Source: Escherichia phage BF17. Taken from it: a DNA stretch of 64,000 nucleotides. Made by a program: the position numbers and the translations under genes. Shown piece after piece: positions 4,397-63,181 of the stretch. Location of the stretch: the sequence record MW822008.1. The stretch is one strand, 5' to 3'. Position 1 is the first letter of the stretch; every line of letters starts with the position of its first letter. The notes beneath the pieces were generated by a model. It saw only the letters and a program-made list of their open reading frames with translations, had not been told where the DNA came from and did no database searches.

Positions 4397-4660
4397 ATGA
4401 ATATTCAAGATAGATTACAATTACTGTACACACTTGAACAGGCTGCTTATGATCTTGTTCGAAAAATCTCAGATGAACTACCTAAAGGAACTAAAGTTCG
4501 TGTACGTGAGATGAATTATTTTTCTGGAGTAATTGAAGAACAAGTACTAACAGTGAATAAAGTAACATACTATGAATCTGAGTTGTCTATTCAGTGTGAA
4601 TCTGATGATGGATTAATATCATATTATGGAACTGATGTAGATATAGAGGTAATAAAATGA
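4397..4660 (+). CDS. small hypothetical protein (paralog family)
   Basis: ORF 4352..4660 trimmed to ATG after upstream stop; motif GTKVRVREM. Confidence 0.5.
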   Translation: MNIQDRLQLLYTLEQAAYDLVRKISDELPKGTKVRVREMNYFSGVIEEQVLTVNKVTYYESELSIQCESDDGLISYYGTDVDIEVIK

Positions 4661-5799
4661 CCCTTTTGCAAATATATGAAGATTTAATGCACTTATGTAA
4701 TACAAACGATGCATTCTTTTATGTGGATCATAAAAGTCCTGCTGGTGGCACGTATCGTGTATTCAGTTATCGTCTAGCATCATACACTGATTTCATGCAA
4801 CCAAATGCGTTGGAAACCCGTGGCTCTATGTGGGAAATTGATGAAGAAGGTGACATGATACGTTGTGCAGCACGTACAATGAAAAAGTTCTTCAATGCTT
4901 ACGAGAATCCTGCTACAATGTTCCCTGCTAACACCACATGCGATGACATTGCGGTAGTGATGCCTAAGTTGGATGGCTCGATCATCAGTACTTATCGTGA
5001 TAATGATGGTGAGATTCGTTGTAAATCACATACTGCATTGTATTCTGACCATGCGATTAACAGCACTCGACTTATTAACGAGAACCAGAATTTGTATCAG
5101 TACATCGACGAAGCGGAACGTTTAGGTTACACAGTTAATATGGAGTATACAAGCCCAGAGTACCGAATTGTATTACCATATCAGGTAGAACAACTGTTTG
5201 TACTGAACGTTCGTCATCGTGTGAGTGGTGAGTTGCTTTGTGGTAAAGCACTACGTGATAAGTTTCCATGTCTTGCACAGTACAGTACTAATATGACTGG
5301 AAAAGATATTCATCACACTTTTCCGGTACGAAATACCTTCCGTGAAAGCGTGGAGGAAGTTCATAAAATGCTTGATATTGAGGGTTTTGTGTGCATCCTA
5401 AATAATGGGACAATGTGTAAAATAAAGACTGACTGGTACAGTTCATTACATCTTACAAAAGATAGTATTATTATTGATTCTCATTTATATGAAGCAGTAT
5501 TAAATGGTTCAAGTGATGATTTAAAACAATTGTTCAGTACTGATGAATATGCTATGCAAAAGATATTAAGAATGGAACAATTGGTATTTTCGTGCTATAA
5601 TGCATTACAAGATGAAGTAGAAAGCTTCGTCAAGGAACACAAGCACTTGGAGCGAAAGGAATTCGCAATGAAGGTTCAGGAGTGTTTAACTAATGAACTG
5701 AATCGTCAGGGCTTGGCCTTTGCAATGTATAACAATAAGAAAGTTGATTACAAAGAGACTCTTATAAAATACATGAAAATTGTACTAAAGGATTTTTAG
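4657..5799 (+). CDS. rnlA: RNA ligase 1 (T4 RnlA-like)
   Basis: 380 aa; N-terminus, FFY, YRVFSY, LE.RG and KxDGS nucleotidyl-lysine motif align with T4 Rnl1 (recalled from memory). Confidence 0.85.
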   Translation: MTLLQIYEDLMHLCNTNDAFFYVDHKSPAGGTYRVFSYRLASYTDFMQPNALETRGSMWEIDEEGDMIRCAARTMKKFFNAYENPATMFPANTTCDDIAVVMPKLDGSIISTYRDNDGEIRCKSHTALYSDHAINSTRLINENQNLYQYIDEAERLGYTVNMEYTSPEYRIVLPYQVEQLFVLNVRHRVSGELLCGKALRDKFPCLAQYSTNMTGKDIHHTFPVRNTFRESVEEVHKMLDIEGFVCILNNGTMCKIKTDWYSSLHLTKDSIIIDSHLYEAVLNGSSDDLKQLFSTDEYAMQKILRMEQLVFSCYNALQDEVESFVKEHKHLERKEFAMKVQECLTNELNRQGLAFAMYNNKKVDYKETLIKYMKIVLKDF

Positions 5800-6622: not shown

Positions 6623-7555
6623 ATGCCAACTATCACACTAACAGTTGGATTGCCTGGGTGTGGTAAAACTACATGGGCAGTGCAAGAGATTAAAAACGCC
6701 AAATCCAAGACTATCAACATCAACCGTGATGATATTCGTGAATCTATGGCTGGGTCACATGATGCTTACAAATTCAACGATGCTAATGAGCAGTACGTAA
6801 CTAATTTACAGTTCAGTGCAGCAAATTCAGCAGCAGAGAATGGTTGGAACATCATCATATCCGATACAAACCTTAAACAACATTTCCGTAATCTCTGGAA
6901 AGTATGGGCTAAAGATAATGGTTATGATTACAAAGAAAAGAACTTCTATGATGATTTTGTACCTAATGAAGACCGTGGTGCAGATGTTCATGAATTCTTT
7001 AAGATTAAAGAGTTCGTAAAACTTTGTAAGAAATATAACCTCCAGCGTGAGCGTTCAGTACAAGATGATATCATTGACACAATGGCAGATACGTACTATT
7101 ATAGTAAGGCATTACACATTGGTTACTATGGTAATTCACGCGAAGCTGCTATCATCGTTGATATCGATGGAACTCTTGCTCATAAATGGGGTCGTAATCC
7201 TTACGATGAAAGTACTGTTCTTCAGGATACACCTGATGAAGAAGTTATTTTGTCTATTATCGCTGAAGCAGTTTTTCATAAACGCAAGATTATCGTCATG
7301 AGTGGGCGTACTGAAGGGTGTCGTGCTGATACCGAACAGTGGCTTAAGAATTGGGGTGTTCCTTACGATGCATTGTTTATGCGAGATATCGATGATAAAC
7401 GTCCTGATGATGTTGTAAAATTCGACCTGTACATGAAAAATGTGGTTGATCATTACGATGTTAAAAAGGTATATGATGACCGCGATCAAGTTGTATTCAT
7501 GTGGCGTAAGCTACTTGGGTTGAAAGTTTTCCAAGTGGCTGAAGGAAATTTCTAA
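6623..7555 (+). CDS. pseT: polynucleotide 5'-kinase/3'-phosphatase (T4 PseT-like)
   Basis: 310 aa; P-loop GLPGCGKTT, NINRDD, HAD phosphatase motif VDIDGTLA, C-terminal WQVAEGNF closely match T4 Pnk. Confidence 0.9.
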   Translation: MPTITLTVGLPGCGKTTWAVQEIKNAKSKTININRDDIRESMAGSHDAYKFNDANEQYVTNLQFSAANSAAENGWNIIISDTNLKQHFRNLWKVWAKDNGYDYKEKNFYDDFVPNEDRGADVHEFFKIKEFVKLCKKYNLQRERSVQDDIIDTMADTYYYSKALHIGYYGNSREAAIIVDIDGTLAHKWGRNPYDESTVLQDTPDEEVILSIIAEAVFHKRKIIVMSGRTEGCRADTEQWLKNWGVPYDALFMRDIDDKRPDDVVKFDLYMKNVVDHYDVKKVYDDRDQVVFMWRKLLGLKVFQVAEGNF

Positions 7556-12030: not shown

Positions 12031-12258
12031 ATGAAAGTAATTCAAGTTATGGTAGAAAAATACCAAACTGAAGATGGTCGTATTTTTGATTCAGCTAAAC
12101 AAGCTGAACACCATGAACGTATTATTTCTGGTGCACGTAAAGTATGTCCTACATGTAATGGAACACAACAAGTACCGTCAGAAGATTACCGCAGCTTTTA
12201 TGCTTGTCCACACTGTGATGGGAAAGGCTACGTAGAAAAACAAGAGGTATGGAAATGA
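12031..12258 (+). CDS. small zinc-ribbon protein
   Basis: 75 aa; CPTC ... CPHC. Confidence 0.5.
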   Translation: MKVIQVMVEKYQTEDGRIFDSAKQAEHHERIISGARKVCPTCNGTQQVPSEDYRSFYACPHCDGKGYVEKQEVWK

Positions 12259-12668
12259 AATTGTATTGCTTAACTAATATGTACTGCCAAGGTGTCCAAG
12301 CTGGTATTCAAGCATTCCATGCTGGTGTTAAACTAATTAAAGAATATGAAGGTACTGCTTTCAGTACTATTATTGATGAATGGTACTATGAACACGAAAC
12401 TATTGTAGTACTAAATGCTGGTGGACATGATAAGTTAAATTCTTATTATAACAACCTTAGCAAACAGGGAAAAGTTCCGTTTGCCAAATTCAATGAAGCT
12501 GGATTGAATGATGCTATTACCTGTGTAGCAGTACTGTGTACGTCTGAAATGATTGAAGACATGGCTGTTATGCGTATGAATCTTCCTGCTGGTGATCAAC
12601 TAATGCAAGTAAAATATGGTGCATTGTTTGACACATTAAAAGCAATCAGCACAATGAGGACAATTTGA
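12249..12668 (+). CDS. hypothetical protein
   Basis: 139-aa ORF overlapping neighbours by a few nt. Confidence 0.5.
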   Translation: MEMKLYCLTNMYCQGVQAGIQAFHAGVKLIKEYEGTAFSTIIDEWYYEHETIVVLNAGGHDKLNSYYNNLSKQGKVPFAKFNEAGLNDAITCVAVLCTSEMIEDMAVMRMNLPAGDQLMQVKYGALFDTLKAISTMRTI

Positions 12669-58466: not shown

Positions 58467-58877
58467 ATGATTGAAATGGAAGGAACTCTGGTGTATGATC
58501 CAGATCGTGGCACTATGAAAAAGAAGAAGGACTTCTGGTTAGTACTACAACTTCCATTGCAGTTGGTTCGATACTACCAGTACTTCATCAGAACTAACTT
58601 ACATATTGATATTAAAGACCCACAATGGGGAGCACATGTCAGTATCGTTCGTGGTGAAGTGCCACCAAATCCAGAGTACTGGAAAAAGTACGATGGAATG
58701 AAAGTTAAGATTAAGTTCGATCCTTTCATCGAAGAAGTAAAAGACAATAAGAAACCTGGGTCATTCTTTATCATAGAGTTTGAAGATGATTTCATTGCAC
58801 AAATTCGTGATGAACTTGGTTTAGCATCTAAATATTTCAAATATCACATCACCATTGGTAGAACATACTACGATTAG
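58467..58877 (+). CDS. 2H phosphoesterase-family protein (two H-x-S/T motifs)
   Basis: 136 aa; GAHVSIV and KYHITIG motifs at the spacing expected for the 2H (LigT/CPDase) fold. Confidence 0.55.
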   Translation: MIEMEGTLVYDPDRGTMKKKKDFWLVLQLPLQLVRYYQYFIRTNLHIDIKDPQWGAHVSIVRGEVPPNPEYWKKYDGMKVKIKFDPFIEEVKDNKKPGSFFIIEFEDDFIAQIRDELGLASKYFKYHITIGRTYYD

Positions 58878-59986: not shown

Positions 59987-60319
59987 ATGCTAAATCTAGT
60001 TATCCAAGGTAATGTTGATATTACTCCAGCAATCAATGACGCAATTCATGCTGAAGCAAATGCACTAACGAAGTTTAGTGATTCTTCAGTACTGCATATT
60101 GGTGTTCATGTGAAGAAAGAGCATAAGAATCAATATTTCGTAACTTTAACATCAGGCGGTAAGAGTGTTACAGCCGATGATGCAGATTTATACAAAGCAA
60201 TTGGTGATTCATTTGAAAAAATGGAAACTGTCTTAGGTAAAGACAAAAGCATCAAATTGTATCGCCGTAACCACCCCGAACATCCAGTTCAAGAAGACTT
60301 GACTGAAGACGAAGAGTAA
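59987..60319 (+). CDS. hpf: ribosome hibernation factor / RaiA-like (S30AE family)
   Basis: 110 aa; I.GNVDIT, GG...A..DLY.AI pattern and acidic C-terminal tail resemble HPF/YfiA. Confidence 0.65.
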   Translation: MLNLVIQGNVDITPAINDAIHAEANALTKFSDSSVLHIGVHVKKEHKNQYFVTLTSGGKSVTADDADLYKAIGDSFEKMETVLGKDKSIKLYRRNHPEHPVQEDLTEDEE

Positions 60320-61835: not shown

Positions 61836-61958
61836 ATGATTGCTATGTTAGAAGAAGATTGGGGTGTTTCCGAGCAAGGCACTGATGAATATGAATACCC
61901 AGAATATAAGCCTAAAGGCTTTTGGGAACGTTTGCGTGATTGGTTGATGGGGGAATAA
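61836..61958 (+). CDS. possible small ORF (40 aa)
   Basis: ATG 4 nt after GGAGG; fills gap before CCA-enzyme gene; not in track. Confidence 0.3.
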   Translation: MIAMLEEDWGVSEQGTDEYEYPEYKPKGFWERLRDWLMGE

Positions 61959-61959
61959 C

Positions 61960-63075
61960 ATGAAAAAGTATTTGGTTGGCGGTTATACGAGAGATCGTTT
62001 AATGGGCATCCGTGCAAAAGACAAAGATTATGTCATTGTCGGTGCATCCGAATCTGATATTAAGTACTTGCAAAGTATTGGTTATAAGCAAGTAGGTAAG
62101 GATTTTCCTGTGTATCTCAGCCCAGAGGGTAATGAGCACGCATTGGCACGTACTGAACGTAAAACTGGTACTGGTTACGGTGGTTTCGAAGTGAATACTA
62201 AAGGCGTAACACTGGAACAAGATTTGTATCGCCGTGACCTTACAATTAATGCAATTGCGTATGATCCAGTACTCCAGATTCACATCGACCCTTATGGCGG
62301 GAAAGCTGATATCAAGAACAAAGTACTACGACATGTATCAGAACACTTTAAAGAAGATCCATTGCGTGTTCTACGTTTGGCCCGTTTCGCTACACGTTAC
62401 TCAGACTTTACAATCCATGATGATACTATGACAATGTGTAAAGATATGGTTAGTACTGGTGAACTAGACCATCTAGTCCCAGATCGTGTTTTTGTTGAAT
62501 TCGAAAAAGCACTTTCTGAAGAAAACCCTTCCAAGTTTATCAAAACTCTGGTACAATTTGGTTATTACGAAAAGGCATTTACTACAGTTCCAGTTACCAA
62601 GAAACGTCTGGAATTAATTGATGCTATCGCTGCAAATTGTACAGAAGAATATAAACCATATTTCTTATGGACAGTACTTCTTGAAAATGAAGAAGTAAAT
62701 AATGATTCAGTACTTAACGGTTCCATTAAGGTTCCAGTTAAGTACGTGAAGTTTAGTAATTACATCAAGCGTTTCCGTGAAGATATTAAAACCTTCCGTA
62801 AGAAGACCCCAGTTGAAATGGGACAAATCTTACTGGATATGAATATCAAAAACAATGGTGGTGAAGATTTCCTTTACAAAGTACTGGAAAACTTCATTTT
62901 GAACAAAGAAATTGATTCTGATCTTGAAGATTTGATTATTAAAGTTTATGATCGTTATACTGATGTTGAATTACCTGATATTCAGCAGTTAGTGAAAGAT
63001 GGTGAACTCCAAACATCGGAGATTCGTGATTTTGTTGCTGAATTGCGTATTGAAGCAATCAAGCAAATGTTCTAA
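61960..63075 (+). CDS. cca: tRNA nucleotidyltransferase (CCA-adding enzyme, class II)
   Basis: 371 aa; GG.TRD..MG, DKD (catalytic Asp pair), RRDLTINA, DPYGG and EDPLRVLRLARFA motifs of the poly(A) polymerase/CCA family head domain. Confidence 0.8.
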   Translation: MKKYLVGGYTRDRLMGIRAKDKDYVIVGASESDIKYLQSIGYKQVGKDFPVYLSPEGNEHALARTERKTGTGYGGFEVNTKGVTLEQDLYRRDLTINAIAYDPVLQIHIDPYGGKADIKNKVLRHVSEHFKEDPLRVLRLARFATRYSDFTIHDDTMTMCKDMVSTGELDHLVPDRVFVEFEKALSEENPSKFIKTLVQFGYYEKAFTTVPVTKKRLELIDAIAANCTEEYKPYFLWTVLLENEEVNNDSVLNGSIKVPVKYVKFSNYIKRFREDIKTFRKKTPVEMGQILLDMNIKNNGGEDFLYKVLENFILNKEIDSDLEDLIIKVYDRYTDVELPDIQQLVKDGELQTSEIRDFVAELRIEAIKQMF

Positions 63076-63108: not shown

Positions 63109-63181
63109 TACTAGTATCTGAACATCACTTGATGATAAAGAGATAAGATTATGCGTTATAGCTGTGGTATAATATTTTATC

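Follow-up and report, generated by a model that had tools for sequence, protein, structure and literature searches.

An open reading frame (ORF) at positions 61960..63075 (+) in DNA of Escherichia phage BF17 (sequence record MW822008.1) very probably encodes a short, HD-less CCA-adding enzyme of class II, which belongs to an Asteriusvirus-like jumbo coliphage and would most likely serve to finish those phage tRNAs for which CCA is not encoded in the gene. The DNA analyzed was a stretch of 64,000 nucleotides (nt), and this whole stretch is referred to as the window. The gene, here designated cca, is an intact ORF of 371 amino acids (aa) with an ATG start codon, and the ORF listing contained exactly one ORF at these coordinates. 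A sequence-only reading of the window had assigned the product to the class II tRNA nucleotidyltransferases on the basis of five motifs (GG.TRD, DKD, RRDLTINA, DPYGG, and EDPLRVLRLARFA); all five are in the translation, and the assignment was borne out by Pfam, NCBIfam, PHROG, BLASTP, and AlphaFold/Foldseek. The prediction that the enzyme is of the CCA-adding type was supported by every sequence and fold test.

In the Pfam search the protein matched the PolyA_pol head domain (PF01743; 66.2 bits, E value 4.7e-18, gathering score 23) and the PolyA_pol_RNAbd neck domain (PF12627; 37.5 bits, 2.1e-09, gathering score 22), and residues 1-370 were aligned with profile positions 3-387 of 392 of PHROG 2244, "tRNA nucleotidyltransferase" (2.9e-115). 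Among the NCBIfam models, that for the E. coli-type Cca (PRK10885) gave 278.8 bits (6.3e-83) over model positions 1-204 of 409, a score below the curated cut-off of 451 bits for PRK10885/NF008137. The PcnB models TIGR01942 and NF008634 gave 89 and 44.9 bits, below their cut-offs of 305.65 and 702, respectively, and the A-adding enzyme model gave 65.3 bits. By BLASTP, E. coli K-12 Cca (b3056; NF008137) was 51% identical over phage residues 1-210 in a nearly gapless alignment (E value 3e-68) that covered the head and neck, motifs A to E and the flexible loop, whereas PcnB (PAP I), the E. coli poly(A) polymerase I, was 30% identical to the phage protein. The latter has the superfamily head domain and an EDPxR motif in common with it and differs at the N- and C-termini and by insertions in the loop region. 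A poly(A) polymerase identity was rejected on the far higher Cca values in both bit score and identity. The sequence-only reading had proposed grouping with poly(A) polymerases as the outcome that would speak against it, and the Cca models and identity were in fact clearly ahead of those for PcnB.

Switching from the addition of C to that of A requires the flexible loop that lies between motifs A and B, and CC-adding enzymes have this loop deleted. In the phage protein, this region (EHALARTERKTGTGYGGF; 62134..62187 (+), residues 59-76) was undeleted and near-identical to the loop of E. coli Cca by both BLASTP and alignment. The segment ALARTERKTGTGYGGF was aligned to ALARTERKSGSGYTGF of E. coli Cca with no internal gap, and a one-residue gap was located just upstream. 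CC-adding-only and A-adding-only identities were rejected on the model scores and the retained loop.

The remaining motifs were mapped by alignment with 71 homologues, to which all statements on conservation refer; every residue assigned to catalysis or nucleotide selection was invariant in it. Motif A (GGYTRD...DKD; 61978..62028 (+), G7-D23), with GGYTRD at residues 7-12 and DKD at residues 21-23, carries the putative catalytic carboxylates, and G7, G8, R11, D12, and D23 were invariant. Motif B (RRDLTINA; 62230..62253 (+), R91-A98) was invariant at R91, R92, D93, T95, and N97, and motif C (DPYGGKAD; 62287..62310 (+), D110-D117, with DPYGG at residues 110-114) at D110, G114, and D117. Motif D (EDPLRVLRLARFA; 62353..62391 (+), E132-A144), the presumed EDxxR nucleotide-selecting template, was invariant at E132, D133, P134, R136, R139, and R142. 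In the motif E region (RVFVEFEKAL; 62485..62514 (+), R176-L185), R176 was invariant and V177, E180, and K183 were conserved in at least 90%.

An AlphaFold2 model built from the same alignment had a predicted local distance difference test score (pLDDT) of 95 and a predicted template modeling score of 0.88, and pLDDT fell to 78 at residues 71-80, in the loop region. Foldseek searches against the PDB returned class II enzymes only, with about 390 columns aligned to 3h38, 5hc9, 1miv, and 4x4w. The top match was the Thermotoga maritima CCA-adding enzyme (3h38), aligned over the full length (E value 4.7e-16, TMq 0.73), and E. coli PAP was ranked lower. The full-length alignment and the confident model together indicate a complete head-neck-body-tail architecture. 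This four-domain architecture is common to the phage protein and the T. maritima enzyme (PDB 3H37/3H38/5HC9), the best structural match; their sequence identity is 22-23%, so that the likeness is one of fold and not of close kinship.

The C-terminal body/tail half (62581..63072 (+), residues 208-371) is all-helical, contains neither a histidine nor an HD motif, and is of a version specific to RaK2-like jumbo phages. In contrast to E. coli Cca, which has 412 aa and includes an HD phosphohydrolase domain, the 371-aa phage protein gave no Pfam match to this domain (PF01966); its histidines are located at residues 60, 108, 125, 129, 153, and 171 only, with none thereafter, and in the multiple alignment the H...HD...D columns were gapped or replaced. 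No significant match of this half to E. coli Cca was obtained by BLASTP, and its homology was judged from the multiple alignment, HD-less bacterial relatives, and the fold search. The bacterial relatives are chromosomal enzymes of similar length without PF01966, such as Coxiella burnetii Cca (P0115/P0122, 376-381 aa) and a 357-aa protein (P0092). P0115 was 45% identical to the phage protein along 74% of the query, and P0092 was 41% identical along 99% of it; the C-terminal halves of these enzymes are only weakly similar to the phage version. Since these short HD-less enzymes align further along the protein, the C-terminal half is best regarded as a diverged body/tail and not as a new domain. 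Some related records are labeled "phosphatase", "multifunctional ... 2'3'-cyclic phosphodiesterase", or "Appr-1-p processing domain protein", and no matching domain is present in the phage protein. Because the HD domain is absent, the labels "phosphatase" and "multifunctional" are wrong for these relatives; they are carried over from E. coli Cca.

Potential substrates were sought among the tRNA genes. No tRNA gene and no member of any Rfam family was found within the 64-kb window, and the survey of the rest of the genome that the sequence-only reading had called for was carried out on WPEC5, the nearest complete relative. ARAGORN called four tRNA genes in the whole WPEC5 genome; they are clustered at 84.8-87.5 kb, and cca is about 170 kb away. 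CCA follows the genes for Ser(GCT) and Met(CAT), whereas CAAA and CAAAA follow those for Thr(TGT) and Asn(GTT), respectively. Encoded CCA is thus absent from 2 of 4 tRNA genes in WPEC5 (ARAGORN calls), 3 of 6 in 121Q, and 4 of 8 in RaK2, and tRNA-Thr lacks it in all three genomes. In E. coli, CCA is encoded by every tRNA gene, and Cca acts in repair. The CCA-less phage genes provide a concrete substrate for the phage enzyme, which the host enzyme could in principle also serve, and the suggestion in the sequence-only reading that the enzyme matures phage tRNAs encoded elsewhere is directly supported by those in the near-identical WPEC5. With about half of the phage tRNA genes lacking CCA, there is a concrete reason for a phage to carry cca.

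Two of the tRNA-like genes had unusual features. The Asn(GTT) gene of WPEC5 (87130-87214 (-)) spans 85 nt and has a long variable arm, an atypical form for tRNA-Asn; the tRNA-Asn of 121Q has a normal length of 75 nt and encodes CCA. A weak tRNA-like gene at WPEC5 89287-89365 (-), also present in 121Q (L014 1277-1358), scored 32.6 bits with Rfam and was not called by ARAGORN. Its D-arm is nearly absent, its variable arm is long, and CCA is encoded; it is annotated as tRNA-Leu(taa) in 121Q, but its anticodon loop CUUCUAA reads UCU.

The distribution and the substitution pattern of cca were examined among phage genomes. The phage is placed by its relatives among Asteriusvirus-like, RaK2-like jumbo coliphages (myoviruses), and the frame of reference is therefore RaK2 and 121Q rather than T4, with which the sequence-only reading had compared it. 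DNA identity of cca was 98.9% to WPEC5 (381 kb), about 95% to fEgEco12, WPEC3, and Turkey3, and 84% to 121Q and PBECO4 (Asteriusvirus). The orthologues in RaK2-like jumbo phages (121Q gp539 = YP_009102126, fEgEco12 g284, RaK2 gp031, and that of GAP32; PHROG 2244) have 367-374 aa with 57-99% protein identity. They likewise have an HD-less C-terminal half and the same neighbors, a small ORF upstream and Nudix and glutaredoxin genes downstream, and show no substantive difference from the present enzyme; synteny is retained in 121Q, fEgEco12, RCIP0023, and Munch. By tblastn, 495 phage records contained a relative, 49 of them records of Escherichia phages. Just 72 of the 495 spanned at least 80% of the protein, and the full-length matches, among those listed, were all in jumbo phages of the RaK2-like type, with genomes of about 310-390 kb; in the remaining records (from Vibrio, Aeromonas, Cronobacter, Erwinia, and other phages) similarity is confined to the N-terminal 50-60%. 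A single tblastn locus was found in the WPEC5 record, with no second paralogue. Comparison with the 121Q orthologue gave 94 synonymous and 48 non-synonymous codon differences, with 22 of the latter falling within residues 1-205 and 26 within 206-371, a pattern that marks purifying selection in both halves. The G+C content of cca (37%) is near that of the phage (33.6%) and far from that of E. coli cca (56%), which points to an old acquisition.

Immediately upstream of cca, a Shine-Dalgarno-like GGGGGA (61949..61954 (+)) was read from the sequence 5 nt 5' of the ATG, and the stop codon of a 40-aa ORF (61956-61958) is located 1 nt before the cca start codon, which suggests translational coupling. 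A scan for sigma-70 promoters and terminators around cca gave no clear excess over shuffled sequences (23 sites versus 17.9 ± 3.4).

By analogy with characterized class II enzymes, a single active site in the head domain, with the motif A carboxylates and two metal ions, would add C74, C75, and A76 to a tRNA 3' end with no nucleic acid serving as template. Selection of CTP and subsequently of ATP would fall to the EDxxR residues of motif D, the flexible loop and motif C would drive the change from C to A, and the helical body/tail would grip the tRNA elbow, so that synthesis would end after A76. The most likely task would be the completion of the phage tRNAs without encoded CCA (Thr and Asn in WPEC5), and a further one might be to restore, without recourse to the host enzyme, the CCA ends that phage or host tRNAs had lost. 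As the HD phosphohydrolase is absent, the healing of 3'-phosphate or cyclic-phosphate ends would presumably be left to Pnkp or to a probable 2H enzyme, both encoded in the window.

Several genes for RNA repair and translation are located on the plus strand of the window. They encode a T4-type RNA ligase 1 (RnlA or Rnl1; 4657..5799 (+), 56 kb upstream of cca, with Pfam RNA_lig_T4_1 and T4_Rnl1_C), a polynucleotide kinase/3'-phosphatase (Pnkp; 6623..7555 (+), HAD_PNKP 8.6e-44 and AAA_33), a PTH2-type, that is, archaeal/eukaryotic-type, peptidyl-tRNA hydrolase (12249..12668 (+), PTH2 2.1e-05, above the gathering score), the RNA-ligase-associated Pol-beta nucleotidyltransferase RlaP (43992..45224 (+), 6.3e-16), and a ribosome hibernation factor like HPF/RaiA (59987..60319 (+)). 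The probable 2H phosphoesterase (58467..58877 (+)) has two H-x-S/T-x motifs, HVSI and HITI; its match to 2H-SAK (7.2e-05, 23.5 bits) is below the gathering score of 27, and it belongs to PHROG 12204, of unknown function. A Macro-domain protein with a sub-threshold Pfam match is encoded in relatives just past the position of the window end (L001 22456-22932 and L013 6453-6929). The sequence-only reading had placed the enzyme alongside RnlA, Pnk, and a 2H phosphoesterase and described it as complementing the ligase and the kinase. All three are present in the genome, the 2H protein at sub-threshold level, but Rnl1 and Pnkp are not adjacent to cca: they are 54-57 kb upstream, with dozens of unrelated genes between and no operonic linkage. 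As the repair genes are spread across some 60 kb and form no operon with cca, the proposed complementation is drawn from co-occurrence in one genome.

These genes bear on the idea that the main role of the enzyme is counter-defence, in which tRNA 3' ends trimmed or altered by host nucleases or toxins would be rebuilt by a toolkit that also includes Rnl1, Pnkp, RlaP, the 2H protein, and Pth2. As a main role this is rather unlikely, even though repair of 3' ends trimmed by host nucleases, the other role suggested in the sequence-only reading, is in itself plausible. The genes for Rnl1, Pnkp, PTH2, and RlaP in the same genome, the probable 2H enzyme 3 kb upstream, and the Macro-domain protein downstream in relatives are in keeping with it; toxins acting on tRNA 3' ends, such as MenT/AbiEii, exist, and Iyer et al. 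counted the CCA-adding enzyme among the RNA-repair components of jumbo phages (PMC7824862). However, the repair genes are 17-57 kb off and share no operon with cca, nothing points to a particular host nuclease, and loss of the HD end-healing domain speaks against specialization for damaged, phosphorylated ends, while the CCA-less phage tRNA genes offer a simpler substrate. It is considerably less probable that the lineage-specific HD-less C-terminal half has retargeted the enzyme, so that it prefers the phage's own CCA-less tRNAs or acts on a non-canonical substrate (tRNA-like elements or toxin-modified 3' ends). Every 3' trailer of the CCA-less phage tRNAs starts with CA or CU, in most cases C and then a run of A. 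A retargeted enzyme would amount to a dedicated viral tRNA-end system, unlike a copy of the host activity.

A different catalytic specificity, i.e. that of a poly(A) polymerase or of one partner in a split CC-adding/A-adding pair, is highly improbable. PF01743 spans all of these activities, EDxxR occurs also in PAP I, and structures of the A. aeolicus A-adding enzyme were among the good Foldseek matches. The E. coli-type Cca models nevertheless scored far above the PcnB and A-adding models, the loop is kept in nearly the E. coli form, and the single locus in WPEC5 leaves no paralogue to supply the missing half-reaction. Even slighter is the chance that cca is a remnant of a captured bacterial gene carried as a redundant passenger without an important role. 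In its favor, the host has its own Cca, and T4-like phages manage without the gene, as reflected in the number of Escherichia phage records with a match (49); against it stand the conservation of the gene (57-99% identity) and its synteny in several jumbo-phage genera, the purifying selection on both halves, and a G+C content ameliorated toward the phage level, as expected of an old acquisition.

For the preferred explanation, a CCA-adding enzyme that chiefly finishes the phage's own tRNAs, four points count on the other side. T4 has CCA-less tRNA genes whose products are matured by the host Cca, and with a Cca present in E. coli itself, maturation does not strictly depend on the phage gene. 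The C-terminal half has diverged from E. coli Cca beyond detection by BLASTP, and the substrate preference may have been altered. The tRNA inventory was taken from WPEC5, which is 98.9% identical at cca, the genome of the window itself being represented by 64 kb. In the literature searched, no biochemical characterization of this enzyme or of a close orthologue was found.

Both the annotation and the proposed role are already known, the former from database records and the latter as a published hypothesis. Many orthologues are labeled tRNA nucleotidyltransferase or CCA tRNA nucleotidyltransferase (121Q gp539 in RefSeq and fEgEco12 g284, for example), although the WPEC5 copy is "hypothetical". 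For RaK2 gp031, the same role in tRNA maturation and repair was proposed in 2013, together with a polynucleotide kinase, RNA ligase, and Pth2 (PMC3622015). In a comparative review of 224 jumbo phages (2021), the CCA-adding enzyme was described as a common RNA-repair component in groups 2 and 3 (PMC7824862), and in a survey of huge phages, CCA-adding enzymes were counted in the phage translation toolkit (PMC7162821). The novelty implied in the sequence-only reading is thus not upheld, the idea having been published for RaK2 and for jumbo phages generally. A literature search for characterized or anti-defence phage CCA-adding enzymes returned genome-annotation mentions only, apart from two papers in which such an enzyme was used as a reagent or an analogy. 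What is added here is an explicit test of HD loss and a count of CCA-less tRNA genes. Beyond correct annotation the importance is modest: a jumbo coliphage is confirmed to carry its own tRNA 3'-end maker beside repair and rescue enzymes, as in the published relatives. For biochemical work, cca is a reasonable, if unsurprising, target.

The Nudix gene immediately 3' of cca (63151-63595 (+)) is split over two frames. Its first 21 codons (MRYSCGIIFYRDGQILIGHTT, from the ATG at 63151) are in one frame (A), and the remainder (GQNHWDLPKGK...), to which the Nudix box belongs, follows in the +1 frame (B); the shift site is at 63208-63217, with an extra C at 63214. In the more distant Munch and RCIP0023, a single uninterrupted Nudix ORF reads ...GHTTGQEHWDLPKGK..., whereas the extra base in CAT ACA ACA C GGA CAG was present in 6 of 6 Asteriusvirus genomes examined. 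Upstream of the shift site, synonymous to non-synonymous variable codons were 5:1 in frame A and 1:6 in frame B; downstream they were 4:72 and 57:18, respectively, so that the substitution pattern changes frame exactly at ACA-ACA-C-GGA. The zero-frame codon at this site, CGG, is rare in the window (3 of 17,077 codons of its ORFs). The split is a candidate signature of programmed +1 ribosomal frameshifting at a "hungry" codon. For a conserved downstream RNA structure, no compensatory change was found among 20 predicted pairs and no stimulatory structure was supported, and no conserved Shine-Dalgarno-like element was found upstream of the site. The frameshifted clade gained only 121Q itself in IMG/VR scans, no mention of the frameshift was found in the literature searched, and the gene is annotated everywhere as 5'-truncated, with a start at GTG/ATG 63182/63185.

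The 2H, Nudix, and Macro proteins around cca resemble a chain for the degradation of ADP-ribose 1''-2'' cyclic phosphate; this compound arises from the removal of RNA 2'-phosphates dependent on nicotinamide adenine dinucleotide. Further downstream, g291 of fEgEco12 (L001 23273-23650) is labeled "aminoacyl-tRNA hydrolase" and its counterparts in 121Q and WPEC5 "hypothetical"; no Pfam match was obtained for g291 at E value <= 0.01, and the label looks unsupported.

Identical or near-identical copies of the cca product were also found on contigs of 355-360 kb entered in the databases as Escherichia coli, under the names "CCA-adding protein [Escherichia coli]" and "Multifunctional CCA protein", which indicates that whole jumbo-phage genomes are filed as bacterial contigs in public assemblies. 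In the WPEC5 record, the pattern of coding sequences at the left end (for example, 153-362 and 431-832) is repeated with equal spacing at 359817-360026 and 360095-360496, and these annotation tables suggest that the termini carry a direct repeat some 21 kb in length.

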